A DNA stretch of 64,000 bases. It comes from an uncultured Desulfosarcina sp. GTDB lineage: Bacteria > Desulfobacterota > Desulfobacteria > Desulfobacterales > Desulfosarcinaceae. This document shows, piece after piece, positions 4,937 through 54,120 of this stretch. The position numbers and the translations under genes were made by a program. The stretch covers positions 384,001-448,000 of the forward strand of contig CAXXWQ010000003.1 in NCBI GenBank assembly GCA_963674945.2, given 5' to 3'. Each line of letters begins with the position of its first letter. The stretch's first letter is position 1. Below the pieces are notes generated by a model. It was not told where the DNA came from. It ran no database searches and worked only from the letters and a program-made list of their open reading frames with translations.

Positions 4937-5281
4937 ATGGTTGAATATATGGTCAGACGTCCTTTAAAAAGGTCTCCGGTACATCCTGGCGAAATTTTAC
5001 GTGAAGATGTTTTAAAGAGTCTCGATTTGACGGTAAGCGAGGCAGCAAGACGACTCGGTGTCTCTCGTCAGCAACTTCACCGCATATTGGCCTGTACACA
5101 TCCAATTTCAACAGAAATGGCGCTTAGACTTGGAAAATTTGCCGGTAATGGGCCTGGGTTATGGCTACGTATGCAACAGGCTGTAAATTTGCACACAAAC
5201 TCAGAATTTTTTGCAGATAAACTCAGAAATTTTCAGCCATGTAAAAGCCAGTACGCAAAACACCTGCTCGAATCAAATTGA
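4937..5281 (+). pseudogene. higA: HigA antitoxin interrupted at ~5181 by the prophage end; ORF runs on into phage DNA
   Basis: PVHPGEILREDVL...EMALRLGK...LWLRMQQA, after which homology stops exactly at TGTAAATTTGCA. Confidence 0.85.
5182..5232 (+). repeat. Prophage end (Mu R-end equivalent): TG plus two tandem ~22-bp transposase-binding sites
   Basis: TGTAAA TTTGCACACAAACTCAGAATTT TTTGCAGATAAACTCAGAAATTT. Confidence 0.85.
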
Positions 5282-21022: not shown

Positions 21023-21041
21023 TAGGCTATTCCTCTTCCAG

Positions 21042-21164
21042 CCGGGTTCGTAAAACGCCCGAGATCAAGGCTTGCGAACCCAGAGGAGCGAGTCGTACAA
21101 GTAGTACGTCGCAGCGACGAGGGGTGAAGCGTAACGCCGATATCGGGTGCTTTTACGAATCCGG
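21042..21164. repeat. Palindromic MITE/REP-like host repeat, family A, inside the prophage
   Basis: CCGGGTTCGTAAAA...TTTTACGAATCCGG termini; related copies at 43753 and 54468. Confidence 0.7.
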
Positions 21165-30779: not shown

Positions 30780-33050
30780 TCAAGTTTTTTCGCTTCTTAA
30801 CTTTCGCAACAGATCATCAACCATTGCCTCTTTTGGTGATTGGATTTCACGAAAAAGAACAAGTGCCTTCTGGAACATCTCCTCTGTACGATCAAGCTCT
30901 CCGCGGATCATATACAAACTCCCGAGGTTGCTGTAGTCACTTGCCATGCCCTCTTTACCTCCGAGCATCTTATTGATGGCCATCGACTTCTGGTACATCT
31001 CCTCTGCACGATCAAGCTTTCCGCAGGTCTGATACAAGGTCCCGAGGTTACCATAGTCAATTGCCATGCCCTCTTTGCCACCGAGCGCCACGTTGATGGA
31101 TAGTGATTTCTGGTACATCTCCTCCGCTCGATCAAGCTTTCCGCAGGTCTGATACAAGTTCCCGAGGCTACCGTAGTCAATTGCCATGCCCTCTTTACAA
31201 CCAAGCGTCTTGGTAATAGCCAGTGACTTCTGGAGCATCTCCTCTGCTCGATCAAGCTCTCCGCGGATCTGATACAAGGCTCCGAGATTGGTGTGTTGAC
31301 TTGCAATGCCCTCTTTACGACCGAGCACCTCGTTAATGGCCAATGATTTCTTATACATTTCTTCCGCACGATCGAGCTCTCCGCGAATCTGATATAAGGT
31401 TCCGAGGTTACCGTAGTCAATTGACATGCTCTCTTTACGGCCGAGCGCCTCATTGATGGCCAGTGATTTTTTGCACATCTCCTCTGCACGATCGAGCTCT
31501 CCGCGGGTCTTATACAAGAGTCCGAGGTTGCCATATTGACTTGCAACGCCTTCTTTACAACCGAGCGCCTCGTTAATGGCCAGTGATTTCTGGTGCATCT
31601 CCTCTGCACGATCAAGCTCTCCGCGGATCTGATACAAAATTCCGAGGATACCGTAGTCACTTGCCATGCCCTCTTTGCGACCGAGCGACTCATTTATGGC
31701 CAGTGACTTCTGGCACATCTCCTTTGCACGATCAAACTCTCCACGGATTTTATACAAGAGTCCTATATTGCAGTAGCTATTTGCCATCCCCTCTTTATGG
31801 TTTAGCACCTCGTCGATAGCCAGCGACTTCATGTACATCTCCTTCGCTTGATCAAGCTCTCCGCGAATTTTATACAAGTTCCCGAGGTTACCGTAGTCAA
31901 CTGCCATGCCCTCTCTACGGCCGAGCGTTTCGTCGATGGCCAGTGACTTCTGGTACATCTCTTCCGCTCGATCAAGCTCTCCGCGAATTTTATACAAGTT
32001 CCCGAGGTTACCGTAGTCAACTGCCATGCCCTCTCTACGGCCGAGCGTTTCGTCGATGGCCAGTGACTTCTGGTACATCTCTTCCGCTCGATCAAGCTCT
32101 CCGCGGATCTTATAAACGTTCCCGAGGTTGCTTAGGGCTTCCGCAGTTTCTATAGTCTTATTCTCAGCGCCACTTAGACTTATCCATTTTTCAAGAACCA
32201 TAGCCGCAGAATCCAAATCGCCGGTACGGTAAAAAAATTCATACCCGAGAGACAATATCCGTATATCCGTAGTCTCTGAAACAAGCTTCGTCAGCTTTTC
32301 TCTTGCAAACTCGATTTTGCCTTCCTTTGAAAATTTCGCAGCATCTTCAGCAATCTGTAGCTGCGTGGTTTCCAATTCTAAACGAACCTTTTCTGCAGCA
32401 TCATTCGCTTTCTTTGCTTCCTCAGTTTTCTGAGAAGCTATCTTTTTAGCTTTCTCTACCTCCTCTAAAGCGGCTATTGGAAGTACAATCATATCAAAAC
32501 ATTGGTCGGCCTTCGGCAACGCATCTTTGGCATAGGCCCTGAGATGACGATCAACTTCGTCCAGGAAAGATTGAGGGGAATCGAAATAGTGGTATAGTAT
32601 TTGTCTTGTTTTTTCCAAGTGCATCCTGAAGTCCATCACTTTGCGCAACTGAGGCCCCGGATCACCCTCAGATTCAGCATCCACTCGCTTGAAGAAAACG
32701 AAAATTTCAGGCGCGCGACTGTTCCTCCAGCGCTCTAATGCCCTATGAAACTCCTCTTCGGTGTAGGAGGAATACGGTTTAGCGTCCGGAGCGGGTTGCC
32801 CCCAGCGCCTATGCATCGCCAAAATAAAGACGTCGCAACTGTCGATTTCTTCATTGATTACACTTTGGTTTCGCCGGCCGGTAGATGCCAGTGTGTCTTC
32901 CCAACCCAAAGGCTCATATTCCACATTGGCTCCATCACCGAACCCTACATTGAGCTGATTAATCGCTTTCCTGAATATCCTACGCTCTTCCGCCAGATCA
33001 CCTGGCGAAGCGATAAAGACTCTGATTTTTCTTTTCACAGTTTCACTCAT
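30780..33050 (-). CDS. DUF4062 (TIR/NDT-like) plus TPR-repeat protein
   Basis: IRVFIASPGDLAEER, CDVFI, SYTEEEF; about eleven 40-aa TPR repeats. Confidence 0.85.
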   Translation of the reverse strand: MSETVKRKIRVFIASPGDLAEERRIFRKAINQLNVGFGDGANVEYEPLGWEDTLASTGRRNQSVINEEIDSCDVFILAMHRRWGQPAPDAKPYSSYTEEEFHRALERWRNSRAPEIFVFFKRVDAESEGDPGPQLRKVMDFRMHLEKTRQILYHYFDSPQSFLDEVDRHLRAYAKDALPKADQCFDMIVLPIAALEEVEKAKKIASQKTEEAKKANDAAEKVRLELETTQLQIAEDAAKFSKEGKIEFAREKLTKLVSETTDIRILSLGYEFFYRTGDLDSAAMVLEKWISLSGAENKTIETAEALSNLGNVYKIRGELDRAEEMYQKSLAIDETLGRREGMAVDYGNLGNLYKIRGELDRAEEMYQKSLAIDETLGRREGMAVDYGNLGNLYKIRGELDQAKEMYMKSLAIDEVLNHKEGMANSYCNIGLLYKIRGEFDRAKEMCQKSLAINESLGRKEGMASDYGILGILYQIRGELDRAEEMHQKSLAINEALGCKEGVASQYGNLGLLYKTRGELDRAEEMCKKSLAINEALGRKESMSIDYGNLGTLYQIRGELDRAEEMYKKSLAINEVLGRKEGIASQHTNLGALYQIRGELDRAEEMLQKSLAITKTLGCKEGMAIDYGSLGNLYQTCGKLDRAEEMYQKSLSINVALGGKEGMAIDYGNLGTLYQTCGKLDRAEEMYQKSMAINKMLGGKEGMASDYSNLGSLYMIRGELDRTEEMFQKALVLFREIQSPKEAMVDDLLRKLRSEKT
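30850..32130. repeat. 120-bp tandem repeats encoding TPR units
   Basis: Period 120 bp; 31861-31980 and 31981-32100 are identical. Confidence 0.9.
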
Positions 33051-33106
33051 TTCCGGTTTTTGAGGAGCCTCAAATCGTCGAACGATCTATCAGACATAAA
33101 AACGAT

Positions 33107-33580
33107 TTAATCAAAGGTCTGGCCCTTCGGGACCGCTGAATTTTCAGGTTGGATTTTTTTTCGTCTTCTGAAATTTCGCCATTCATTTTTGTCCAAGTAA
33201 GCAAATGATTGCGGTGCATTTGCCAAGGTTTTGCATTCATTCAAAGGTATCGCTTTATTGAACGACTTAGGATTATCAAGCAAATAGCATTTGCCAATCT
33301 CATATCCATAATAATATTTTGAAAAGTCCTGGTAGTTGATGAACCCTAAACTTCCAAACTCTTTCCATAATTTTTCAGGTGAATCGATAATGCATTCTTT
33401 TACATCACAGTAGCCTAATATTTCTTGGTCTGGTTTCGTTGAATAGATAACGATCTTTTGAATGTTGGACGGTACTCCATTGCGCCTGAATTCGACTGTT
33501 TTCTTGCCAGACAATATTGCTCGCGCATATATTGGATTTATTGATAAAATAATTATATGCTTAGTCTTGTTTTGATCCAA
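33107..33580 (-). CDS. ASCH domain protein
   Basis: ILSINPIYARAILSGKKTVEFRR, IYST.P, APQSF. Confidence 0.85.
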   Translation of the reverse strand: MDQNKTKHIIILSINPIYARAILSGKKTVEFRRNGVPSNIQKIVIYSTKPDQEILGYCDVKECIIDSPEKLWKEFGSLGFINYQDFSKYYYGYEIGKCYLLDNPKSFNKAIPLNECKTLANAPQSFAYLDKNEWRNFRRRKKIQPENSAVPKGQTFD

Positions 33581-34927
33581 TTTACACCCTCTTGTTTTAG
33601 CTTCATAATTGATTGTGGGGCACCCTTTACAACCCCAGATCGTTTTAGCTCTTTTAACCCTAAAGGTGTCGTTAACCCTTTTACATATCGGAACCTAATA
33701 GCTAAAGTCGGTTTGATGCAAAACTCGGCTATGCTATTATAACTATATACAGTTCGTGAGCCAACATGTCTGGCTATTTCATTAGGATTTGTAGTACGTA
33801 TAAAATCTTCGACGGATCCTATTGCAGTAATTCCTTTAACATCTTCAGATCTATAGAAAAAAATGTTGTCACCAGTCTTAATTTGTTTATTGAGGGAATG
33901 GCATAGATATGCTTTTTTAATGCTATTTCCACAAGGACGAGTCTCGTTGAATATCTGGATTTGTGATTCCAGCTCAGGAAAGAGAGCTGAATGAAATATT
34001 GGTTTAATAGGAATTAAAAACGTATTGTTTCCTTTAAATAGAACACGCCTAGGACCATATTTGATATGGAATTCAAGAGGCGACATATCTTCAATATCTT
34101 GAGATGAATAAGTAAGTTTTTTATAAACGATTAATTCCCCGTTTTTACATTGTTTATTAAATACGCTGAATCCGAATGATTCTGAAAATGCGATTAAGTC
34201 ATCGTATTTTGGAAACGTTGTGAAATAGATATAGTCATAATTATTGTTGTCAGCATAGTCGAACACCGCCTTGAATAAAAGCTCGCCAAATCGCTTTCCA
34301 AATTCCATTTCGGATATCTTAAAGGTGCATAATTTTAAAGTCCGGCCTCTATCACCAGTTGGAACTTCTTCTTCGCTTTTAATTATACAAATTCCTGATA
34401 AACGAACCATTCCATCACTACATATCACATACGCTTCTCGATGATCTCTCTTGCATTTCGTCAACCACTTGTCAAACTTGGGGGAATAGTCTTGGCGTAA
34501 TGAGTTAAAAATTGGATCATTTTCATTCAGCTCGTATATATAAACTTTTTTAACGGATGGCGGTGGTGGCGGCGATTTATCAAAAAGATCAAGTAAAAGA
34601 GCTATCGCATCTTTAAGAAAGAACACTCTCGATTCAATACCTGATCGGTGGGCTTTACGGTGTAGCTTTTTATCTTCCGTGATTAGAAAATCAACTGCGT
34701 CACCTTTTACCGATGCCAGAAGGCAATTATCTACATAATCGTTACTGCCCAAGACAGGCTCGCCAACTATGTCTGGATCTAAAAGAGATAATGGAGGTGG
34801 GGATTCTATTCTTTCATATTTTTTTATAAGCCTTTTTCTTAACGTAGACCTTTCAGTATTCCTATCCCGATCTAAATCAAATCCGACAGCAGGATGAACA
34901 TAAATAGTGTTTCCTGACTTTTGAATT

Positions 34928-36493
34928 GTACGCATTCACAGGGTAACACCCATTGGATTAAATCCAGGAAAGGTTTGGCTCTAAATTTCGAAAATAGGAA
35001 GTAATGCACTCCACGAGAAAAGGAAAAGTCTGCTTTGCTTGTAAGCGACAGGTTTCTTTCAGTGACAATATCCGCTCAACCCAACGGTTTCCTTTCTCGC
35101 TTTGGGTGCCAAGGCTTCGTTTCCGCCACAATACACCAAAGCGTAGCGCTCTTTCGGCACGATTGTTTGTGGGATCGACGCCCTTGTGATCCATAAACAC
35201 CCATAGGTTGTTCATTTCCCGGATGATCTGCCGAGCGAGTTTTCCTGCATCCGTTTTATCGGGTTCCCAAAGGGACACGGTAAACAAGAAGAATGTATAA
35301 AAATCCGACCATTGCTTTGGGTCGGGTGGCTCTTTGGCAAACGATACCAGTTGTCTCAACCAAGCGGCGACGATTTCTCCGAAGCGACGTAAATCCGGCT
35401 TCTTTCTCTCCGCCAGAGAATCGGCCTTACGGATTAGATGAGCCAGGCACGTCTGGCGGTGAACCCATTTTTGATACAGGCCGTAACCGTCGCTGACCAG
35501 AATGCCGTTCCAGTCCTGGATGAGTGCTTCGAAAGCCACCTTGGAGCGATGCGGGTCTATGCGATAGAAAGCAACCCGCTCGTTGACCATGGCCCACAGC
35601 CAGTGCAGATCGTTTTCTGTAAACCAGGAGGTCTCATCGATATAATTGCACCAGAAACTTCTGGCGATACCCCCGATACGTTCATACACAGGCAAAATCG
35701 CCATTGAAGTGCGGTCAACGATTTTTTGGATCGTCCCCGTAGCAATGGGAATGTCTAACACAGAGTCGCATAACTGCTTTACGTCCATTCGGCTCATCCC
35801 TTTAATACCGCTTAATTCACCAACAAATGCGGTAAATCGGGGACCGTATCCGCTCGACAGGGCAGATGGCAGCTTGGCTTTGACAACCTTCCCGCAATTG
35901 GGGCAATCGCACTTGTGCAGAATATAGTGGCTGACTTCCATTTCGATTTTGGGAAGTTCGATCTGTTGATGGGTGTAAAAAGGCTTCATCTTTTCCTGAT
36001 CGAACACCGAATGACCACAACTGCAGCATTTTGGCATCAACGAATGTTGCTTTGTCGGCTCGAGCAGTTGTTGCTGGTGCGGTTTGTGTCCTTTTTGTCC
36101 GCCTTTGGATCGCTTGCTCTTTTTCTGTTTTCTTTTCTGCTTGCTAAAAGGCGGATCGGATGAGGGCGGTTTACTGGAATTACGAGAATTCATTTTGGTC
36201 TGGACTTCAAGTTTCTCTATGCGTTTTTCATGGGTCTCAACCCATTTTTGCATATCATGAAGCGCCTGTTCCAGATATAGGATGTAATTTCTCACCGCCT
36301 CTGGTGTCAGTTGCCAATCGAGTTCTGAAAATGGTCTTTTGAGTGCCATGAAAAGCACTCTAACATAGTTAAAAGAAAAAATCTAGATTTATTTTAAATT
36401 ATTTCAGGCAGTTACGGTGCACACAATTTATGCTTTGTTTTCAATGGGTTAAAGGCCATGATGTCAGCCCTAAAATGCCCCGTGAACGGTTAC
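34928..36493 (-). mobile_element. IS66-family insertion sequence (single-ORF type)
   Basis: Ends GTAACCGTTCAC / GTACGCATTCAC; 8-bp TSD TTTGAATT at 34920-34927 and 36494-36501. Confidence 0.92.
34958..36358 (-). CDS. tnpC: IS66 family transposase
   Basis: NSRNSSKPPSSD, GGQKGH, DETSW, LVSDGY, CLAHL, PTNNRAERALR. Confidence 0.92.
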   Translation of the reverse strand: MLFMALKRPFSELDWQLTPEAVRNYILYLEQALHDMQKWVETHEKRIEKLEVQTKMNSRNSSKPPSSDPPFSKQKRKQKKSKRSKGGQKGHKPHQQQLLEPTKQHSLMPKCCSCGHSVFDQEKMKPFYTHQQIELPKIEMEVSHYILHKCDCPNCGKVVKAKLPSALSSGYGPRFTAFVGELSGIKGMSRMDVKQLCDSVLDIPIATGTIQKIVDRTSMAILPVYERIGGIARSFWCNYIDETSWFTENDLHWLWAMVNERVAFYRIDPHRSKVAFEALIQDWNGILVSDGYGLYQKWVHRQTCLAHLIRKADSLAERKKPDLRRFGEIVAAWLRQLVSFAKEPPDPKQWSDFYTFFLFTVSLWEPDKTDAGKLARQIIREMNNLWVFMDHKGVDPTNNRAERALRFGVLWRKRSLGTQSEKGNRWVERILSLKETCRLQAKQTFPFLVECITSYFRNLEPNLSWI

Positions 36494-36694
36494 TTTGAAT
36501 TAACCTATGAAACTCCAGGGCATGATCCGTGTTAATTCCAAAATCGGAAATTGTCCCTGGTTCTAATGGGACAATGATGTTTGTATCAATTAAGAATTTC
36601 ATTGGTCATATTAATTCAAGGCCAGCACTCTGGCTCTTAGGTAAGGGCCTCTTTTTATATATAATTCTTGAGTAGCCGATTGTTTGGCATTCAT

Positions 36695-37483
36695 TCAAAT
36701 ATATAGCGGACTCTTATAGCTGTTTTTTGTTAACCATTTCTCATATCCATCTATCTCTGGACCACCGAGATTCATTGCATATTCAACACCAAAGATTGCA
36801 AAAACAACAAAGAACTCACTGTCAGAGGTGACAAGGATTTTAAACTCATGAAGAACCTCGTATGGTTCCCCGCCAGGCTCGCAAAACAGAAAATCGCTTG
36901 GGTATATCCGTCGGACGCTTATAGGCCAGTCGTTATGCCCGCAGTTCCATCTGACAAAGTTACGCAGATCACTTAGCTCTGGTTTGAAGGCAATATCATA
37001 ATTTGCACCAGCCACATTAAGCGCACGGTGAGCAAGCACCTCAAGCCCAACCTTACCAATGAACCGTGCAAGTGAAGGACAGGGTTCTGGCATCGGTGTG
37101 TGGGGCAGTAAAAGAGTCCCGAAAGTGTTCTTTGTATAAGATTGAATCCAACGTGAAGGATCTTCATCTCTCGCTGCACCAACTGCAAGCCCTTCTCCGT
37201 TAGGTAAGTGGAAAGCCTCAATTTTTGTGCGAGATTGGACATGGAATCCCGTGATATATGGGATTCTTCCCCGTTTATTTGGGACGGCCATTTGAAAACG
37301 GGCCTCTGTAAGGTGCAGAGATTCTAAAAAGGGTTTTTCGATCTTAATCGAAAAATAATGGTTGCATTTGTCGCATACCCAACCACGTGGAAGAACATGG
37401 TCAGTGTTTCCAAGAGACTCAGGGATGATATGCTCCACAGACTTTGACGAATTAGATACTGATTGGCAAAAAATGCAGTTCAT
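36695..37483 (-). CDS. HNH endonuclease (gene cassette)
   Basis: CIFC...SVEHIIPESLGN...VCDKCN; begins just after a GTTCGGC core site. Confidence 0.85.
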   Translation of the reverse strand: MNCIFCQSVSNSSKSVEHIIPESLGNTDHVLPRGWVCDKCNHYFSIKIEKPFLESLHLTEARFQMAVPNKRGRIPYITGFHVQSRTKIEAFHLPNGEGLAVGAARDEDPSRWIQSYTKNTFGTLLLPHTPMPEPCPSLARFIGKVGLEVLAHRALNVAGANYDIAFKPELSDLRNFVRWNCGHNDWPISVRRIYPSDFLFCEPGGEPYEVLHEFKILVTSDSEFFVVFAIFGVEYAMNLGGPEIDGYEKWLTKNSYKSPLYI

Positions 37484-37493
37484 TGTCTAAGTT

Positions 37494-37610
37494 GCCGAAC
37501 GCTGCTGTTCACCAGGCGGGCGGCGCCAAAGGAAAGCCGCCATAAAGCGAAAAAAAATACTTAAAAAAACGCCGAGGTAGCCCGCTCAGTGTGCAACAGC
37601 CTTGTTATGG
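37494..37610 (-). other. attC integron recombination site
   Basis: Minus strand: CCATAAC..GCTGTT(G)CAC...GTGAACAGC..GTTCGGC; extrahelical G and variable terminal loop. Confidence 0.8.
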
Positions 37611-37624
37611 TTTTTTAACTTTGG

Positions 37625-38791
37625 TTAATTCAGTGTTTCAATGTTTTGAAAGGCTTGGTTCAATTCATCAACGTTTTTAAATCTTATATCGTTGTCTTTG
37701 TGAAGACCTTTTTCAATAAAGTCTTTTAGGTTTGGCCTAACTTTATCAAAGTTAGTTTTCCCTGTTAGTACGAAGTAAAGGATACGAGTTAAGGCGTATG
37801 TCTCGTGTAAAATATTATAATTGTTAAACCCTTCAACTAATAAATTGGGGTCATTCAAATATCCTTTAAACTCAGTACTTAGCGACGTAAGGCTACTATT
37901 GGGTATTCTAACCAGACCAAAGTCAGCAATTTTAACAACAGGAACATCATCATATAGCTTCAGTAATATATTTTTCGGGCTGATATCTCTGTGTAATAAT
38001 TTTTTTGAGTGTATATACCTGAAAGCTTGGATAATTTGATTTCCGAGTTTCTTTTTCTCTTGAAACGAAAGCTTTGTGTTATTTGCGATTATATAATCCT
38101 TCAAAGAAATATCCATAAAATCCATAATATATTCTTGTTTCTTGTCGTTATAACTGAAAACTTCGAGAATATAAGGAGAATTTAGAGAGTTCATTTGCTC
38201 AAACTCCCTCTTGAACCTTTCTATTTCTTTGTCATTCAAATCTTTTTTTGCTCTTTTAAGTGCAAAAGTTTTTTGGTAAAAATCGTCAAAATATTTAAAG
38301 ACTAGAGCATAAGAACCTTCGCCTATCAATTTTAAATTTTTTACAGTCTTTTGATTTTCAATAACAATTGATTTTTGAGGAATGAAAATCGGTATTGTAT
38401 AATATAGTTCAATTTTATCTGTATTTGGTGGAATTTCACTACCACCACTTCTACTTAAAAAAGACTTACATAAAGATATTATTTTTTGATAATTTTCATC
38501 AATTGTGAACGCAAGTTGTGAATGTTTAAGAGACCTTTCCAATGCTTCGATTATTGAAATAATATTAATTAATTCACGACTTGGATCTGCCCAGAAATGA
38601 GCCATACTACCATCGCTTGTTGGTAACCTCTCATTCATTGTGTCAAATAGGTCAATCAACTTAGCGTGAAGTGTCGAAAACAATTTTTTAAGCTTTTCGT
38701 TGCTGAATGACTCGTATAAATCTTCGTATTCATTGCTTAACGAGTCTATCAGCTTTCTATAATGAGATTCAATTGAGTTTTGAGTTTTCAT
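37625..38791 (-). CDS. Ser/Thr protein kinase with uncharacterised N-terminal domain (gene cassette)
   Basis: GEGSYA, ALK, HRDISPKN, DFG; very AT-rich. Confidence 0.9.
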   Translation of the reverse strand: MKTQNSIESHYRKLIDSLSNEYEDLYESFSNEKLKKLFSTLHAKLIDLFDTMNERLPTSDGSMAHFWADPSRELINIISIIEALERSLKHSQLAFTIDENYQKIISLCKSFLSRSGGSEIPPNTDKIELYYTIPIFIPQKSIVIENQKTVKNLKLIGEGSYALVFKYFDDFYQKTFALKRAKKDLNDKEIERFKREFEQMNSLNSPYILEVFSYNDKKQEYIMDFMDISLKDYIIANNTKLSFQEKKKLGNQIIQAFRYIHSKKLLHRDISPKNILLKLYDDVPVVKIADFGLVRIPNSSLTSLSTEFKGYLNDPNLLVEGFNNYNILHETYALTRILYFVLTGKTNFDKVRPNLKDFIEKGLHKDNDIRFKNVDELNQAFQNIETLN

Positions 38792-38836
38792 ATTTCATAA
38801 CAACACTTCATTTAAACCGTTTGAGTTACTTCCAAA

Positions 38837-38902
38837 CCAGAACGTGCAGGTAACTTGCCGGGCGCGTCGTTTTGCCCGGTCAAGTTCACTTGCTGGTTAT
38901 GA
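38837..38902 (-). other. attC integron recombination site
   Basis: Minus strand: TCATAAC CAGCA AGT(G)AACTTG(A)CCGGGC..GCCCGGCAAGTTACCT GCAC GTTCTGG; two extrahelical bases. Confidence 0.85.
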
Positions 38903-38912
38903 AATTTTGTTG

Positions 38913-39401
38913 CTATTCATATAGTGGTTGATGAAAATAATGTTTCACTTTGTCATCTATTTCCATCAGTTCACATAAAATCAGTATTGAGTGTTTTATT
39001 AGCTTCGTATCCCGAGAAATTTCTTTTGAAGAACCATGTTCAAATTTTCCACCATGAAAAAGATTGTTACGAATACGACAAATCATTGTTACCAAAAAAT
39101 GTATTGTTGGAGTATTTTTATCTAATGGGAAATCCTGCCATTCTAAATGACCATCCACAATAGCTTGTTTTTTAGGTGGAGACTTTTTTATATACTCAAC
39201 GGCCTGTTTGAAAGCATCAGATTTATTTTCATTAAAATCAGGACGAATTTTTTTTGCAAATTTTTGCCAATTGGCCGATACATAATCCTTATTTTCTAGA
39301 AATCCAGATGCTTTCAATGCATACTCAGATCTTGAAAAGATGTAAAAAAACTGTTCCGCATATGTTTTCTTCACTTTTAAGCAATCTGTGATTGTTTTCA
39401 T
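38913..39401 (-). CDS. HEPN-like protein (first gene cassette)
   Basis: FSRSEYALK and RNNLFHGGK (RxxxxH) motifs; bounded by GTTATGA and TCATAAC. Confidence 0.7.
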   Translation of the reverse strand: MKTITDCLKVKKTYAEQFFYIFSRSEYALKASGFLENKDYVSANWQKFAKKIRPDFNENKSDAFKQAVEYIKKSPPKKQAIVDGHLEWQDFPLDKNTPTIHFLVTMICRIRNNLFHGGKFEHGSSKEISRDTKLIKHSILILCELMEIDDKVKHYFHQPLYE

Positions 39402-39411
39402 ATTTTGTCTT

Positions 39412-39505
39412 TCATAACATTAATATTCTATAGGACTTAAAATAGATGATTTCATACTACCACGTATTTAGAACCAGTTCTTTATCAGGAAATTGGAAAT
39501 GTAGA
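39412..39505 (-). other. attI-like leader of cassette array 1
   Basis: Ends CTATAGAATATTAAT|GTTATGA; homologous to 49788-49857. Confidence 0.6.
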
Positions 39506-39510
39506 TGGAC

Positions 39511-39539
39511 AGAATATCCAAAGATATTAAATATGTCAA
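39511..39539 (-). promoter_or_regulatory. Sigma70 promoter driving cassette array 1 (Pc-like)
   Basis: TTGACA-17bp-TATTCT. Confidence 0.7.
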
Positions 39540-39630
39540 TTACAGGCTGGTATGGTTTCGAACGCGCAGAATTTGGTAGGTAAGCACCCTTGCCCAAGGG
39601 TTGCCACGAGTATCATCGTTTTTCCTATTA

Positions 39631-41286
39631 CCTGTTTCCGTGGCACAAAACCTGATTAAAACACTATAACCAATTGATAAAACATATATATTATGGTAAT
39701 ATTAGGGCACTAAACGCTCACTTCGGAGGTGAAATCAATGCGGCGTCCGATCACCATAAAACACGAGATGGAAAAACTTGCCAGTCATAGCGGATTGATC
39801 AATATCGGCGCATTACTTGATGCGATAAATTTCAGGTTCCGTTTCGAAAAGATCAACGGCGTCCATTGTGTAGACCCGAAAATTTCTCATGGTGACATTT
39901 TAGCTTCGATGATTGCTCTCATGAGTATTGGTAAACCTGATTACGATGCGATCGAGATTTTTCGTGAGAAGCAAGAATTTTTCAACAAGGCCATTGGCAA
40001 TCGTGCATGCCCGTCAAGCCCGACATTGCGTCAGCGAATCGATTTGATCGGCAACCAAGCCGATAAGCTGATTAAGGATGCAGGCGTTGATTTGGTTCGA
40101 TCCTGCGCTCCGGCGATTTCACCCATCCAAACCAGTGCGGGTGATTTCCTTCCTTTGGATATGGATGTGAGTCCGTTTGACAACTCAAAGACTCAAAAGG
40201 AAGGCGTTTCCAGAACCTACAAAGGCACGGATGGCTTCGCTCCGATCTTTGCCTACCTGGGCACCGAGGGGTATCTGGTGAATCTTGAGTTCAGAGAAGG
40301 AAAACAACACTGCCAGAAAAACACCCCCGAATTTATCAACGCCACCTTGGATTATGCCAGGCAAATTACCGATCAGCCTATTTTGATGAGGTTGGATTCA
40401 GGAAACGACAGTCAAGACAACTTTCCTGACGATTCACGAAAGAATGTCCACTTTATCATCAAACGCAATTTGCGTAGAGAATCTGTTCAAAAGTGGGTTG
40501 ATCTGGCAAAAAAATCCGGCAAGCAACAGCATTGCCGCTCAGGAAAATGTGTATGGATCGGAAAGACGATTGAAGACATCAACGGCAATCCATTGCGCTA
40601 CCCAATCATCTTTGAGGTTACCGAAAGGCATACCAAAAAGGGCCAAGTACTGCTGTTCCCCGAGTATCAGATCGATACCTATTGGTGCAGCCTCGCACAG
40701 TTGCCACCGGATGAGGTGATTCGACTTTATCACGATCACGGTACCAGCGAGCAGTTTCACTCCGAACTCAAATCCGACATGGGCCTGGAGCGCTTGCCGA
40801 GCGGTCATTTTTCCACCAATAGCTTGATTCTTCATTTGGCGATGCTGACGTACAACATGCTACGGATTATCGGACAAATCAGCATCGAAGAGAGTGATCC
40901 GACTGAATTGCCCGGTATACGCCGGAAGAAAGTTACCCGGCGTCGAATCCGGACAGTCATGCAGGACTTGATGTATATGGCCGGTCGATTAGTAACCAGA
41001 AGTAGAAAATGGTACATATCCTTTGGCCAACTCAATCCATTTTCCAAACTGATGGATCGGATTTATCTTCGTCTGAATTTGCTTTCCGCTATGAAGTAGC
41101 TATAATTTTTAAAAGAACAATTTTACAGGCATTTGCTTGGTGATTTGCTATGGCTAAAGAATGAGAAACAGGAGCAAAATTCCTTCGAAATTTGAAAATA
41201 GTGAGAAAAATTATCAACAAATGATGGTGTGTGAGGCAATCGCCCCGCGCCAATCCTAACAGCAAAAATTAGGCCACTGATTCAGG
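39631..41286 (+). mobile_element. IS1380-family insertion sequence
   Basis: IRs CCTGTTTCCGTGGC / GCCACTGATTCAGG; 5-bp TSD TATTA at 39626-39630 and 41287-41291. Confidence 0.92.
39729..41099 (+). CDS. IS1380 family transposase
   Basis: PSSPTLRQR, LDMDVS, RLDSG, YHDHGTSEQFHSELK. Confidence 0.92.
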   Translation: MKSMRRPITIKHEMEKLASHSGLINIGALLDAINFRFRFEKINGVHCVDPKISHGDILASMIALMSIGKPDYDAIEIFREKQEFFNKAIGNRACPSSPTLRQRIDLIGNQADKLIKDAGVDLVRSCAPAISPIQTSAGDFLPLDMDVSPFDNSKTQKEGVSRTYKGTDGFAPIFAYLGTEGYLVNLEFREGKQHCQKNTPEFINATLDYARQITDQPILMRLDSGNDSQDNFPDDSRKNVHFIIKRNLRRESVQKWVDLAKKSGKQQHCRSGKCVWIGKTIEDINGNPLRYPIIFEVTERHTKKGQVLLFPEYQIDTYWCSLAQLPPDEVIRLYHDHGTSEQFHSELKSDMGLERLPSGHFSTNSLILHLAMLTYNMLRIIGQISIEESDPTELPGIRRKKVTRRRIRTVMQDLMYMAGRLVTRSRKWYISFGQLNPFSKLMDRIYLRLNLLSAMK

Positions 41287-43708: not shown

Positions 43709-43752
43709 GGAGACCTCCTGATGTTGATGACCTCGTAAAAAGCTGCTGTTCG

Positions 43753-43820
43753 GACGGATTCGTAAAAAGCCCGAGATCAAGGATTGCGAGTCTCGAGGTC
43801 GGGCTTTTTACGAATCCGTC
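43753..43820. repeat. Family A palindromic repeat (short copy) overlapping the MuB stop
   Basis: GACGGATTCGTAAAAAGCCCGA...TCGGGCTTTTTACGAATCCGTC perfect 22-bp IR. Confidence 0.75.
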
Positions 43821-44617: not shown

Positions 44618-46750
44618 TCACGTCGTCCCCGTCATCACCGACGCGCAAACGCGGGCCTGCTCCCAATACCCGCTCTTTGCAAGCGTCTTGTATTTCGGGG
44701 TCTGCTCGAAATACCGCATGAAGGTGAGCCACTGTTTCGGGATCATCACGCCGCTCGCCGCCAGGTGGACAAGCGTTTCATACCGGTCCGGTTCATCCAT
44801 GCCGTCGAGCTCGGCGAAAACGTTGGGCTCTTCTTTCTCGTGGTTTTCGAAATACGCCGCGGCCTCCGCCTCGATCTGCTTTTCGTCGGCTGCGGTGAGA
44901 TGCTTTGGAGCGGATTCTCGATCGATTATCACTGGGCCGGTAGGCGTTACACCCTCACGCAGTAGTTGCCGGCGGTGGGCCGGCAGCACCTCTTTTTCCA
45001 ACAGCAGCTTGGACAGGCCGCTGGCCAGCTTGTACTGGTGGTTTTTGATCGCGAGCTGTCGGTCCAGTTGATCCACATCCTCTTCGGTGCCAAGCGGTCT
45101 TGCTGCCGGGTGGGTCTTCTCCTGTTCAAAGGCGAGGCAGACGAATTCATCCTCTTCAAACACCGCGATATAGCTCGGGTCCTGCAGATCGTACCGCACC
45201 TCGACGCTATGGTGGCGGCCGCACAGTTTGTCATGGTAGTAGTAGCTGCCCATATGAGAGATCCGGCTGGCGCGGACCACCGCGTCCTTTCGGGCCCACA
45301 TCAAAGCGGTCAGTTTCGCCGGATCGATTCCCTTGCCGCGGCCCGGTTCGAAAAGATCCATCGGCGCCCAGCCCTTCAGGTACTTGCTGCGCGGTTGCGG
45401 ACGGTGGGCGTATTCGTCGAACCATTCGGCCACCATTTGGTGGGCCATTTCCATCGTCACATACTCGCCGCCCATCACCTTTTCATAGACCTTCCTGTGC
45501 AGCTTCTCCCCCCGGTTCATGCGCGGCGGCTTCTTGGCGATGCTGGTTCCGGTGTAGCTCGGCGATTTTCTCTCCATCTCCGCCATCGTTCCGAAAAATC
45601 GCTCCACGGTCTTGCTCTGCCCGTGATACCCCCACGCGAATATCGTCTGGATGCCGAGCTGGTCGTACAGGCCCTTGAGCCCGGCCTGCGAAAGATCGGT
45701 GTTCTGGAAATAGTTGGCCTTGAACGCCTTGCCGTTGTCCAGGTAGACGACGCGAGGGATCTTGCCCAAAAATAGGATGGCCCTGCGAAGTGCGGAGGAA
45801 ATTGCCACGGTGTTTTCCGTCGGCATGATCTCCCATCCGCACGGCATGCTCGATCGCATGTCGTAGAAAGTGATCAGCGTCATCCGCTTTGGTTTGCCGG
45901 TCCACGGATTCAGGATGTTGAAATTGAGCTTGTGCCCGTCCGCCACCAGCACATCGCCGACATTGATCAGTTCCGGGTTCCGCTCGATGGACAGGCAGCA
46001 CTCGTCGTTCCACCGCTTCTTGCCGCCACGCTGAAAACACCAGATATCATAATTGTGCTCTTTGAAATCCATAATCCACCGGCGGTACGTGGATGGGTTG
46101 TGGCCGTTGGGGATGCCCACCGCCGACATCCGTTTTTTCGCCTCCCGGATCACCTCCGAAATGAGCAGAGCGTTGGGATGAAGTGCCACCTGGAGAATGA
46201 TCGCGGCCTGTTTTGCCGTGATGATCCGCTTCCCTTTTCGCGCCTTGCCCCGCCGGTCCGCCAGGTTCCCGCCGTCCCGCACCGTCCGCTTCCATCCCTC
46301 GATGGTCTGCCAGGACACCGGCCCGAGGATTTCGTGGATCTGTTGATAGATGAGCCCGTTGTTGTAGGCCGTCATGAAGTTGTCCCGGGCCACCGCCTTC
46401 TTACCGTGACCGGCGGCGGATATGGTCCTTACATAATGACCGAGAAGATCGGCCTTGGCGCCGAACGTTCGCCGCTGCGCATCGCTCATCTCCTCCACCG
46501 GCGTCTTTTTCGCCGGAAGATGGGATGAGGATTCTGCGGGCAGGTTGGAAAGCCGGTCCTTATTATAAAGGACGCGGATATCCTCCGGCAGATTGTCGAC
46601 CGGGTACCGCCGGATCTTCCCCCCGCGCCCCTTGCCCGGCATCTCCATGAAATGCCACCCCTCCTTCGATGCGCGTGCCTGGAGGGACCGCACGCCGACA
46701 CCGGCGAATTCGTGGATCTGCTGAATGGAAAGGGTCGTCTCGCCAGTCAT
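44618..46750 (-). CDS. MuA-like DDE transposase
   Basis: N-terminal Mu HTH (RASKEGW..GRGG..YPVDNLP), LVADGH, YLDNGKAF, SKTVERFF, VRYD C-terminal domain. Confidence 0.92.
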   Translation of the reverse strand: MTGETTLSIQQIHEFAGVGVRSLQARASKEGWHFMEMPGKGRGGKIRRYPVDNLPEDIRVLYNKDRLSNLPAESSSHLPAKKTPVEEMSDAQRRTFGAKADLLGHYVRTISAAGHGKKAVARDNFMTAYNNGLIYQQIHEILGPVSWQTIEGWKRTVRDGGNLADRRGKARKGKRIITAKQAAIILQVALHPNALLISEVIREAKKRMSAVGIPNGHNPSTYRRWIMDFKEHNYDIWCFQRGGKKRWNDECCLSIERNPELINVGDVLVADGHKLNFNILNPWTGKPKRMTLITFYDMRSSMPCGWEIMPTENTVAISSALRRAILFLGKIPRVVYLDNGKAFKANYFQNTDLSQAGLKGLYDQLGIQTIFAWGYHGQSKTVERFFGTMAEMERKSPSYTGTSIAKKPPRMNRGEKLHRKVYEKVMGGEYVTMEMAHQMVAEWFDEYAHRPQPRSKYLKGWAPMDLFEPGRGKGIDPAKLTALMWARKDAVVRASRISHMGSYYYHDKLCGRHHSVEVRYDLQDPSYIAVFEEDEFVCLAFEQEKTHPAARPLGTEEDVDQLDRQLAIKNHQYKLASGLSKLLLEKEVLPAHRRQLLREGVTPTGPVIIDRESAPKHLTAADEKQIEAEAAAYFENHEKEEPNVFAELDGMDEPDRYETLVHLAASGVMIPKQWLTFMRYFEQTPKYKTLAKSGYWEQARVCASVMTGTT

Positions 46751-46752
46751 TT

Positions 46753-47358
46753 TTATCCCTCGAGCAATCGTTTCAGGCCGTCGATGATCTTGATCATCTT
46801 TTTCCGGTCGACTCCCTCGAACCTGTTTTTTCTCGCATCCCGAATACTCTGAATCAGATCCTCGAACGCTTTTTTGAAGATGTCGGGGAGCGTTCCGATG
46901 GAATTCTCGATCATATTCCTCGTTCGTGGCTGCGGGTTTCCACGCAGAAGGTCCACCGCCCACACCACATGCTTGGACATCACCACGTCCGCGCCGGACT
47001 CCTTCGCCCGGTTGATGGCCATGTCCCAGGCCTTTGCCTGCTCTTCCGGTTCCAGCTTCGCAAGCGGCCGTGCCAGTGACTCTTTTTCGGGCAGCACCGG
47101 ACAGGTTTTGTCCGCATTGCGGACATTTTCGATCACCTCAACACCGGTGATCAGTTGGTAGGCCGTCGACCTGGCGCAGTCGAATCGCTCCTTGGTGTAC
47201 TGCTCGAAAGTCGCGTGGGACATCCGGTACAGCTTCCGGTCCCGGATCTCCCGCAACGCAAACCCGACCTTCATCCACGACACCATGTTGTCCTCGACAA
47301 CCCTCTCAAGCCGGTCCAGGTCGTTGATTTCGTTCATTGATAGTTGTGTTTTGTCCAT
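46753..47358 (-). CDS. Phage early protein (DUF3102-like)
   Basis: VGFALREIRDRKLYR..TFEQY..ERF, ESLARPL. Confidence 0.65.
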   Translation of the reverse strand: MDKTQLSMNEINDLDRLERVVEDNMVSWMKVGFALREIRDRKLYRMSHATFEQYTKERFDCARSTAYQLITGVEVIENVRNADKTCPVLPEKESLARPLAKLEPEEQAKAWDMAINRAKESGADVVMSKHVVWAVDLLRGNPQPRTRNMIENSIGTLPDIFKKAFEDLIQSIRDARKNRFEGVDRKKMIKIIDGLKRLLEG

Positions 47359-49756: not shown

Positions 49757-49864
49757 TTCCCGGGATATCTCCAACGCACCTATAATCCCACATCTCCAAA
49801 TAAAGAATTAGCTCCAAAACGATCATAGACTGAAACCGTCTATAGAATGTCAATGTTTTAAGCC
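49757..49864 (+). other. Promoter (-10 TATAAT at 49781) plus attI-like leader of cassette array 2
   Basis: Ends CTATAGAATGTCAAT|GTT; homologous to the leader of array 1. Confidence 0.55.
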
Positions 49865-49894
49865 TACTAAAAATATTAAATTAGGGAGGAAAGA

Positions 49895-50479
49895 ATGACC
49901 GCTAAAGGTGAAAAAGATGCAATTTTGTTTGCATTAGCTGAGTTGTTTGCAGCTTTAAAAGGAAACATGAATGCTAATGCGGTTCGTTTTGATGAGGATA
50001 AAATTCCAACCTATGGGCTCCGTGTTGCTGAGCAGTCTTTTGGAACGGCCTATCAGTTAGTTAACGAACAGTCGATTCCATTACCCAAACCCATCACCAT
50101 CGTTATTGAGGCTGCTATTAAGGGAGCTGGTATTGGAATAAAAGCATGGGCACAATCTATGAAAGATGATTGGGGAATGATAGCTCCGAAATGCGGCGCA
50201 CATTGTAAATTGTGCAATTCGAGAAGTACAGCTCTATACTTTAACGCTATTTCAAAAATATTTGATTATAGTATAAAAAGTAAATCAAAATGGGACAAAA
50301 AAGACGCTCAAAAAGTTTCAACAATAAGCGAAAGTGTCAATAAGTCTTTGGTTGACTATGCTGATGAGGTTGTTAAAACGAGTTCTTTCGCTAATGCCTG
50401 GACTGCATGGGACGCCTTTGGTGATAATCTATTTTCTCTTGCGGAACCATTAGCAAAGCTTCTATCAACTGATTATTAA
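49895..50479 (+). CDS. Hypothetical protein (gene cassette)
   Basis: 194 aa, GGAGG RBS; lies between attI-like and attC-like sites. Confidence 0.7.
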   Translation: MTAKGEKDAILFALAELFAALKGNMNANAVRFDEDKIPTYGLRVAEQSFGTAYQLVNEQSIPLPKPITIVIEAAIKGAGIGIKAWAQSMKDDWGMIAPKCGAHCKLCNSRSTALYFNAISKIFDYSIKSKSKWDKKDAQKVSTISESVNKSLVDYADEVVKTSSFANAWTAWDAFGDNLFSLAEPLAKLLSTDY

Positions 50480-50489
50480 AACATACTGT

Positions 50490-50554
50490 GGCTTATAATA
50501 GTATTAAGTGCGACGGCAAAAAGCCGTCGCACCTTATGCCGAGCTTCGTTAGAA
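50490..50554 (+). other. attC-like site with degenerate R''
   Basis: GGCTTAT..GTATTAAGTGCGACGGC AAAAA GCCGTCGCACCTTATGC..GTTAGAA. Confidence 0.65.
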
Positions 50555-50572
50555 AAAACAGAGGAACAAAAT

Positions 50573-52021
50573 ATGATTACTGATTTGCTATCCCCCCAAC
50601 TTTTCGGGAATGAGGCAGGTGAAGATGAAGATCTATGTCTTCTGAGCTCATACTTTGTCGACAAACCTCTCTTCAAACCTTTTTATAGTGATCAAAACAA
50701 ACTCATGATTGCTCGTGCCAGAAAAGGGATTGGCAAATCGGCACTTTTAAGGAAGACATTTGCTGGAGTATGTGATTCAGATACAGATATTGCTATTTAT
50801 TTAAAAGGTTCAGACCTAATAGCGTTGCAACAAATTGACTCCGATACACCTCACCACTTGATATTTGGATGGCAACAACGTATTTGCTCCAGAATAACTC
50901 TAGAAATTGGAAAGAGACTGAAACTGGCTTTGTCTGATGATACAATAACACTTGTAGAAAGTGCTGAACTGGCAGGATTTAAAGGTAGGAATGTTATTGG
51001 ATCCCTATTAGATCGTCTCAAACTTAAGTTGTCGAATGCAGAAATAGAATTGTCAAAAATAACCCCTGCTGATACAACCCAACTCCTAAATCGATACTTA
51101 GAAAATAAAAAAATTAAAGTTTGGGTTTTTATTGATGATATTGATGCAACATTTATCAACACAGCAGACCAAAAACTTCTGATCTCAACATTTTTTTCAG
51201 CCTGTAGATATTTGGTAAATGATGTTGATGGCCTCATGATCCGTTCATCAATACGGTCTGATGTATGGTCTGTAATTTGCGATGACGAAGCAATGGATAA
51301 ATGCGAGCAATATATGGTTGACATCACTTGGTCAACTCGTGAAACAGGCGACATTTTGAAGAAAAAAATACTCAGCTATTTTCTTACGAAATACCCCAAT
51401 AGCAAAAAATACCAGGAAATGAGAATCTCTAAGAACAAGGGCATCCCTGTCTACAATCTTGTTTTCAAAACTCCATTTCCCTGGGGTAAAAAAATGCTGC
51501 CACCCGACAAACCTATTCATATCATGAGTGCGGGAAGACCAAGATGGGCGGCACAACTGTGTAAGTTAGCAGGCAAGCATGCCGCCACTAAAAATCACTC
51601 TCTCATTCGAATAACGGATGTATCTAAAGTAATGGATGTTTACGGAAGATCAAGGTTAAGCGACTTGTACAAAGAACATGCGCATCAATGCAGTAAACTT
51701 GTTGATATAATTGAATCATTCTCTGGGTGCCAACGCCGATACGCAACAGTAGATTTGTTAACTCACATCACGAACCGAATCATTAAGCGATTCGGCTTAC
51801 CTAAAATTGATGGAATCGAACAAGGTCGAGATAGTTTATATATTTCACACTTCTTGTTCAGAGTTGGATTTATTTATGGTCGAAACGATACAGGTGATGC
51901 GCCACTATCATTTGTAAACTATGATGAAAGGCCTGACCTTCTGGTTTCGACAGCAAATCTTGATGATGGGTTAACTTGGGAGATCCATCCAAGTTACAGG
52001 CAAGCATTAAAAATAAAATAG
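50573..52021 (+). CDS. P-loop ATPase (Sll1717/FunZ-like), gene cassette
   Basis: FGNEAGEDE, ARKGIGKS (Walker A), VFIDDID (Walker B), RPRW, IHPSYR. Confidence 0.8.
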   Translation: MITDLLSPQLFGNEAGEDEDLCLLSSYFVDKPLFKPFYSDQNKLMIARARKGIGKSALLRKTFAGVCDSDTDIAIYLKGSDLIALQQIDSDTPHHLIFGWQQRICSRITLEIGKRLKLALSDDTITLVESAELAGFKGRNVIGSLLDRLKLKLSNAEIELSKITPADTTQLLNRYLENKKIKVWVFIDDIDATFINTADQKLLISTFFSACRYLVNDVDGLMIRSSIRSDVWSVICDDEAMDKCEQYMVDITWSTRETGDILKKKILSYFLTKYPNSKKYQEMRISKNKGIPVYNLVFKTPFPWGKKMLPPDKPIHIMSAGRPRWAAQLCKLAGKHAATKNHSLIRITDVSKVMDVYGRSRLSDLYKEHAHQCSKLVDIIESFSGCQRRYATVDLLTHITNRIIKRFGLPKIDGIEQGRDSLYISHFLFRVGFIYGRNDTGDAPLSFVNYDERPDLLVSTANLDDGLTWEIHPSYRQALKIK

Positions 52022-52070
52022 ACCGAACTCCATTTCTTAATAGACATCAAAAACTGGCGCCAGAGGTCGG

Positions 52071-52183
52071 AAGGGGTCAAGTCTGCTCTTGGCTCATATA
52101 GAGATTGTGGATTGAATTTGCCCTCAATGGTCTTTAAATAGAGCAAGCTTGGATCGGCGATTTTTATCCCTATTTGGGATGTT
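52071..52183 (+). repeat. ~112-bp repeat, copy 1 (copy 2 at 53078-53189)
   Basis: AAGGGGTCAAGTCTGCTCTTG(G/A)CTCATATAGAGATTGTGG...CTATTTGGGATGTT is shared. Confidence 0.85.
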
Positions 52184-52232
52184 ATTAAGGCGTCCATAGA
52201 ATATCAATAATAGTCACAATAAAGGAAAAAAA

Positions 52233-53809: not shown

Positions 53810-53918
53810 TCGTTAGACATCCCTAACAGAATCCAGCCAAATTTCTTATTTTTAAATATCCTGCGCCCAGCCGCCGGAATCGTACACAACAAATACCATC
53901 AACGCGCCATAACCTTTT

Positions 53919-54120
53919 GTTATCACGTCATTCCCGACCCACACAAGTTTCACAAAAGGTCCACAAAAGTGCCATCAAATCCCCAATTCAATATTTCTGA
54001 GATAGTCTGCTCCCCCATAGTTATCACGTCATTCCCGACCCACACAAGTTTCACAAAAGGTCCACAAAAGTGCCATCAAATCCCCAATTCAATATTTCTG
54101 AGATAGTCTGCTCCCCCATA
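53919..54120 (+). repeat. Perfect 101-bp tandem duplication containing the terminal transposase site
   Basis: 53919-54019 equals 54020-54120; each copy ends ATTTCTGAGATAGTCTGCTCCCCCATA. Confidence 0.9.

Follow-up and report, generated by a model that had tools for sequence, protein, structure and literature searches.

An integrase-less cassette array behind a dispersed attI-like leader in a Mu-like prophage of Desulfosarcina

Introduction

CALIN elements (attC clusters without an integron-integrase) were reportedly described by Cury in 2016. Some of them are located in phages, including the Shewanella prophage M16-3, where an attI site stands at the head of the cluster (Qi et al. 2023, PMC9892861). 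We report here on a 64,000-nucleotide stretch of DNA from an uncultured Desulfosarcina sp. (contig CAXXWQ010000003.1, positions 384,001 to 448,000, hereafter the window) that holds, inside a Mu-like prophage, an integrase-less array of what its sequence indicates are three genuine integron gene cassettes, preceded by a promoter and an attI-like leader.

Both prophages combine an integrase-less attC cluster, an attI or attI-like site ahead of it and host-type cassettes (PMC9892861). However, M16-3 also holds a complete integron and its attI is of a known host type (PMC9892861), whereas the present prophage lacks intI and its array starts at a separate, dispersed leader. Furthermore, M16-3 is P2/lambda-like (PMC8541194) and not Mu-like, and its cargo differs from the mostly defence-type genes predicted here. 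Small arrays distant from intI are also typical of CALINs and SALINs (lone attC sites without an integron-integrase), for which intI loss or insertion at short attG sites is invoked (Loot et al., bioRxiv 2022.09.11.507474); the arrays described here start instead at a long leader present in multiple copies. In the vicinity of most CALINs there is no intI pseudogene (bioRxiv 2022.09.11.507474), and an attI separated from intI is hard to detect, which raises the question of how CALINs originate. A multi-copy family of orphan attI-like sites, with a measurable relation between core and R'', makes this question testable.

Mobilization of cassettes in trans has already been stated (PMC9668308; bioRxiv 2025.06.18.660453). 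Single-gene cassettes of HEPN or HNH type, such as those of the present array, are known as defence cassettes from Darracq et al. (bioRxiv 2024.07.02.601686) and Kieffer et al. (bioRxiv 2024.07.02.601719), where they belong to complete chromosomal or plasmid integrons and have tested activity, whereas the genes studied here are predicted defence genes not assigned to a named system. The leader can also be compared with the delta-attI cassettes of class 1 and class 2 integrons, in which displaced pieces of attI recombine with IntI1. These fragments bound cassettes inside mobile integrons (PMC12901181), whereas here whole leaders head arrays devoid of intI. The literature searched (with few subscription papers among it and without the CALIN tables in the supplement of PMC9892861, which may hold a Mu-like case) describes neither dispersed intI-less attI copies nor integrons in Desulfosarcina.

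The cassette array

Positions prefixed by C1, C3 or C4 refer to contigs of the present genome (G000, 7.1 Mb), and names of the G0xx type to related genomes or their elements. From complete-integron arrays of this and related genomes, 78 attC sites were gathered; two covariance models were built from 46 and 24 attC sites of complete integrons, the window being excluded from both (covariation, 0.54 vs 0.12 when shuffled). With one model (R1), attC1 and attC2 (Table 1) reach 37.0 and 30.3 bits (E 1.5e-6 and 6.2e-5), the next match in the window being at 12.8 bits, and with the other (R2) the same two sites are again the top two matches. The initial annotation, which had proposed such a search as a check, had placed both sites to the exact base. 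In addition, attC1 is among the 13 strict matches of a structural scan of the whole genome.

Both sites adopt the R''-L''...L'-R' hairpin on the bottom strand, with AAC/GTT pairing, an unpaired central spacer and extrahelical bases. The extrahelical G that had been read as diagnostic is indeed present in both, on the top strand; the recombining bottom strand therefore has a C, and neither site shows the conserved extrahelical G drawn on the folded bottom strand in PMC5371416. Among the 78 attC sites of complete integrons, an automated count found a G on the top strand in 28 and a C in 12, the top-strand-G variant being locally frequent.

The core sites GTTATGA (39418 and 38801) and GTTCGGC (37500) and the R'' remnant GCCAAAC (36688) are present as first described, and the R'' of the three cassettes is complementary to their own 5' core exactly, with one mismatch and with one mismatch, respectively. 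With at least two attC sites in the same orientation and no intI nearby, the array has the make-up of a CALIN; the complete-integron arrangement, in which intI adjoins attI, is lacking, and no Pfam tyrosine-recombinase match was obtained among the 68 window proteins scanned, as had been claimed. Downstream of the HNH gene follow a truncated attC, then a PDC-M11-like pair that an IS66 element interrupts, a decayed attC and a TPR gene. The array, which the initial annotation had ended at 36682, extends through this pair to the decayed attC.

The promoter, TTGACA-17-TATTCT, is found where it had been announced and matches 10 of the 12 consensus positions. Promoter-like matches in the region are not above chance (11 vs 11.4 in shuffles); the spacing between -35 and -10 is kept in the leader copy at C4:1343017 and in others.

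Table 1. Coordinates of the array, its leaders and neighbouring features in the window
Feature	Position	Strand	Basis or remark
Promoter consensus, sigma-70-type, candidate Pc	39511..39539	-	TTGACA-17-TATTCT, 10/12 matches
Integrase-less attI-like leader	39412..39545	-	crossover G|TT at 39418/39417; ~70 bp internal deletion vs full-length copies
Cassette 1 gene (162 aa), predicted RNase, HEPN-like	38913..39401	-	motif, model, fold comparison
attC1, 66 bp	38837..38902	-	R'' exact complement of leader core; covariance models
35-bp spacer, attC1 R' to kinase core	38802..38836	-	irregular junction
Cassette 2: Ser/Thr kinase gene (388 aa, PF00069) with 5' core at 38801-38795	37625..38801	-
attC2, 117 bp	37494..37610	-	covariance models
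Cassette 3 gene, 262 aa, HNH nuclease domain	36695..37483	-	PF14279, E 1.4e-10
attC3, truncated (R'' and spacer only)	36670..36688	-	spacer start common to intact attCs elsewhere; no covariance-model match
PDC-M11A-like gene (GNAT/EVE part), IS66-split	33553..36602	-	PADLOC PDC-M11A, E 1e-157
ASCH gene (PDC-M11B)	33107..33580	-	PADLOC, E 1e-36
Decayed attC closing the PDC-M11 pair	33097..33154	-	weak: 12.6 bits, E 1.1
756-aa TPR protein, N-terminal PDC-S60-like domain	30780..33050	-	last low-GC island gene; abuts truncated conserved early gene
IS66-family element	34928..36493	-	8 more full copies and 1 partial at >=99% in genome
DDE transposase insertion sequence (PF13701)	39631..41286	+	25 more copies at >=99.7%
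Mu-type transposase of host prophage	44618..46963	-	domain match
Second leader copy, more deleted	49787..49857	+	downstream of repressor; G|TT at 49855
Left-end array, decayed (gene of 194 aa, attC remnant at 50503-50554, P-loop ATPase of 482 aa)	49895..52028	+	attC remnant 12.8 bits, E 0.99
Third leader copy	52141..52208	+	G|TT lost

A leader dispersed in the genome and beyond

The promoter region of the array matches a second integrase-less array of the same genome (80.5% over 113 bp), the shared sequence running to G|TT and diverging beyond. A leader profile, seeded partly with the present genome's own copies, gives 17 matches at 14 distinct places in this genome and 0 in the reversed genome. 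It describes an element of 100-200 bp whose conservation ends at G|TT. Three of these ~14 copies are carried by the present prophage and most of the others are chromosomal. Since most copies thus lie outside prophages, the leader is not phage-specific, which weakens the phage landing pad initially proposed; related Mu-like elements carry the leader too. Leader matches were found in 3/30 genomes of the genus and in 10/300 of the order (two candidates scored per genome in the latter set), and Desulfosarcina records carry the leader and a related element. The leader is absent from 50,697 phage records and 72,556 plasmids, and two patterns did not detect it in viral contigs. Twenty viral matches to a shorter 18-nt pattern, none of which reaches 14 bits by profile, were put down to chance, together with three matches of 22 nt and one further match.

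Exact patterns ending at the G retrieved 48 metagenome and 16 genome loci (64 in all, of which 54 are distinct). TT comes next in 44 of these 64 loci, and varied bases after it. As expected of an attI, the leader has a fixed G|TT crossover, conserved sequence upstream and varying cassettes downstream, and in this respect the entry site earlier called attI-like deserves the name. The homology upstream of the crossover has a median length of 93 nt in 47 loci, unlike the short core of an attG. Genes upstream of the leader loci are of mixed types, and no IntI-level match was found near any of the 64 (best 31% identity; 44 loci with at least 1 kb upstream).

The relation between leader and cassettes was measured on 19 loci, that is, those with a downstream attC minus 3 near-duplicates and 2 without an intact AAC. 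In 13 of them, the first downstream R'' is an exact match to all four variable bases of the core, and in 17 it has at most one mismatch, compared with a mean of 1.1 and a maximum of 7 exact matches in 50,000 permutations (a cruder earlier scan had given 8/13). Chance hairpins or terminators between ordinary moron genes, to which terminator-like matches overlapping attC2 and the low-GC accessory genes commonly held by Mu-like prophages could lend some credit, are refuted by this test and by the covariance-model scores with their exact boundaries, and we give them practically no weight.

Other copies of the present genome display the same relation: R'' and core agree exactly at C4:1342833 and C1:364069, and at C4:565702 the GTT has decayed and R'' retains the old core. 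The attC of the orphan array on C4 scores 75.6 bits with a long-attC model whose training set includes host-integron sites. A small integrated element (C4:1338301-1350167) bears a full-length leader and two cassettes, one of them with an HNH gene; by inspection, it also has a split integrase and excisionase-like and primase-like genes. A short repeated element that begins with a G-run (window 52073 and 53080) also lies upstream of several copies of the leader, and it forms an inverted pair at C4:1984885-1985256. At C3:2341800 and C4:567688, a leader and the gene upstream are similar to window 49787-52208 and are probably remnants of related left ends. Within the left-end array of the window, an exact 7-mer after the first gene (50476) was discounted, being out of register with the attC remnant.

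Integrases and canonical attI sites

As predicted by the initial annotation, the genome has an intI elsewhere. This single gene above the cut-off (C3:2206329, 470 bits, no internal stop) is 1.8 Mb away from the array and heads its own cassette array, riddled with insertion sequences (ISs). Upstream of it, a palindromic box resembles a LexA operator. The first cassette of this host integron (C3:2204556-2205936) is a pair made of DarT and a NADAR antitoxin.

The canonical attI is also present without intI at three further places (C1:366472-366314, C4:2706087 and C4:2962948), the first of which heads cassettes whose R'' and core agree exactly, and continues into a further copy of the leader. In the same way, several relatives have the canonical attI at more places than intI genes. 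Contigs of four runs contain no joints or circles; as rare forms drop out of contigs, this is evidence neither for nor against activity.

Cassettes in related Mu-like elements

The early region was compared across seven related Mu-like elements. Their accessory slots contain three leader types, the present one and two others. In G059 and G044c, the leader comes after the repressor and is accompanied by other cassettes, the R'' of which agrees with the core provided that a decayed GTT is admitted; over the stretches compared, both elements seem to have no late genes, and they may be remnants. The left end of G044a matches the complete-integron attI at 71-73%, in register to the crossover and without intI, and is followed by three cassettes; after its DUF3164 gene come decayed cassettes in reverse orientation. 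The junction of G013 has a cassette behind the third leader type, 73% identical to the right end of G044a. This type (L131:3880-4100, L123:17960-18140) ends in GTT ahead of the cassette. The cargo includes an AriAB-like gene in the G059 array and a PDC-S15-like gene at the G044a junction. In two arrays of related elements, the last attC ends near a phage-end motif. G048 gave no match.

By sequence comparison, the slot common to relatives is the left end and not the early/late junction, and cassette capture recurs in these phages. Directly after the cassette of G013, at its early/late junction (C2:16208-23269), type I restriction-modification-like genes were seen by inspection. A long run of attC matches lies downstream of the G059 element (locus L129).

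Loading in place or capture

The reading that we favour, and regard as probable, is that of an orphan platform made of a promoter and an attI-like site, carrying genuine cassettes likely loaded by a distant IntI and predicted to express anti-phage functions. An IntI, probably SOS-induced, would recombine the folded bottom-strand attC of a circular cassette with the G|TT of the leader. The newest cassette would land beside the promoter while older ones shift downstream and their attC sites decay, as attC3 and the site of the PDC-M11 pair may have done. The leader itself would have come to the junction as a block in place of variable early genes, and the low-GC defence-type genes may be retained through protection of the lysogen. 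Such loading would give Mu-like prophages a concrete route to fill their accessory slots with defence genes. Owing to the leader deletion, the IS insertions and the truncated early gene, present activity is doubtful, and the reprogramming and the spread by replicative transposition first proposed are hypothetical.

Several observations weigh against this reading. In the array itself, the R' of attC1 is GTTCTGG (38843) and the kinase core lies 35 bp beyond, an irregular junction; the kinase core is not the R' of attC1. The spacer could be a cassette that has collapsed or a site of secondary insertion; the genome and 17 integron-array loci were searched for similar sequences, and none was found at E < 0.03. 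The ~70-bp deletion removes two of three repeated motifs from this leader copy, and none of the three cassette genes matches a defined defence system over its full length. Among the 64 outside loci, the crossover is decayed in 20, as relics would show, and a downstream attC is seen at only 24, many contigs being short. The leader profile has no convincing match in the flanks of 21 intI loci (best E 0.58), and leader and intI-linked attI share only a short block (E 0.01), so that neither comparison points to a cognate integrase for the leader. Moreover, an intI above the cut-off is missing in 6 of 11 outside leader-bearing genomes (drafts, two of them with partial matches). Different cassettes in related prophages, which the initial annotation had expected, do occur in G059 and G044c; the two closest relatives (G018 and G044b, 92% terminase identity) have plain early genes and no array at the junction, so that insertion at this junction is lineage-specific and not ancestral. 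Finally, three other Mu-like prophage regions of the present genome have no attC match.

Part of this evidence could also point to a captured relic, the promoter-attI-cassette end of an unsampled integron type that lost intI, was moved preloaded by an IS or Mu rearrangement and is now decaying. The deletion in the leader, the truncation of attC3, the decay of the attC at 33097, the two IS insertions of recent date and the truncated early gene would all fit such a history, as would the decayed crossovers and the intI-less canonical attI copies of the genome, one of which retains an upstream operator-like box. Neither intI nor a fragment of it was found upstream of the 64 loci or of 21 loci tested earlier, however, and the genes there are heterogeneous. 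The leader of related elements, placed in their common left-end slot with differing cassettes and, in two cases, with a last attC near the end motif, also argues for loading in place. We consider capture, the main rival, rather unlikely; were it true, the array would be one more decayed phage CALIN.

It is improbable that the leader has another job, as a promoter or mobile-element repeat, with its GTT serving as a secondary IntI site (attG) selected for promoter proximity. IntI does insert cassettes at genomic attG sites, some of which are expressed from resident promoters (bioRxiv 2022.09.11.507474). The dissimilarity between leader and intI-linked attI and the displaced kinase core, which resembles a secondary-site event, would suit this explanation. 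However, attG is described as a short consensus, GWT, for which hundreds of thousands of targets exist (bioRxiv 2022.09.11.507474), whereas a single position of a 100-200 bp conserved element is used repeatedly here and conservation stops at it; besides, a related prophage has a recognisable attI in the corresponding slot.

Beyond the favoured reading of an orphan platform, we tentatively envisage a distributed integron in Desulfobacterales, in which one SOS-controlled integrase would serve many stand-alone promoter-attI platforms, on the chromosome and in accessory slots of transposable phages. If so, phages could draw defence genes from the cassette pool of the host and ferry loaded platforms between hosts, and orphan attI sites would account for how many small CALINs and SALINs arose.

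Cargo genes

The gene identities first proposed hold for the kinase and the HNH nuclease, and the HEPN-like assignment of the 162-aa protein is moderately supported. The defining features of HEPN RNases are a helical bundle and, within it, an R-x4-6-H motif. For the 162-aa protein, 1,414 homologs were found, with R-N-N-L-F-H invariant in the 56 aligned, 4 of which give weak HEPN_Apea matches. Its model (pLDDT 89) has no Foldseek match at E 0.001; fold comparison gives matches to HEPN-bearing chains at Z 4.5-5.7, several of them in the top ten (best match: Z 5.7, rmsd 4.1, 92 aligned). A sequence search of the PDB with this family returned nothing.

The kinase family occurs in distant phyla, at 57-80% identity, and in plasmids, and of defence models it matches only the kinase domains. 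No close relative was found in 400 sampled genomes of the phylum or in viral contigs, and a tie to named lactococcal systems was not established. Further downstream, the PDC-M11A-like gene has what we presume, from its motif, to be a PIN-like start. From these domain families and from published cassette screens, an anti-phage role of the cargo is inferred.

The prophage and its neighbourhood

The Mu-like prophage, recognised in the initial annotation, spans ~5.2-54.1 kb of the window (about 5182 to 54100). It encodes a Mu transposase, an AAA B-protein, GemA, DUF3164, a repressor and head and tail genes, and has repeated end motifs. The island is located between DUF3164 (41372) and the late genes (30436), with a GC content of 0.36 in its cassette part vs 0.55 in the early and 0.58 in the late region; the early gene next to it is conserved but truncated in the present prophage. 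Mor is lacking here, as it is at the junctions of G018 and G044b, and its absence was therefore rejected as proof of a dead phage.

A multi-copy IS, presumably of the IS1380 family, lies 85 bp upstream of the array promoter. A composite transposon with ISs on both sides was rejected because the two ISs differ in family and the IS66 element sits within a downstream gene. A search of 29000-50000 against Rfam gave two chance matches only.

The flanks of the prophage differ from each other and no target duplication was seen. Its right end cuts an antitoxin-like gene whose missing half is not at the left end (ends: 4937-5281 and 53860-54115); at the left end there is a tandem duplication of 101 bp, with two adjoining tRNA-like genes. 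An intergenic repeat of ~120 bp, present about a hundred times in the genome, occurs twice within the prophage (21036-21163 and 43715-43798). Another Mu-like prophage is present in two near-identical copies (C1:414-424 kb and C3:1991-2001 kb), consistent with recent transposition.

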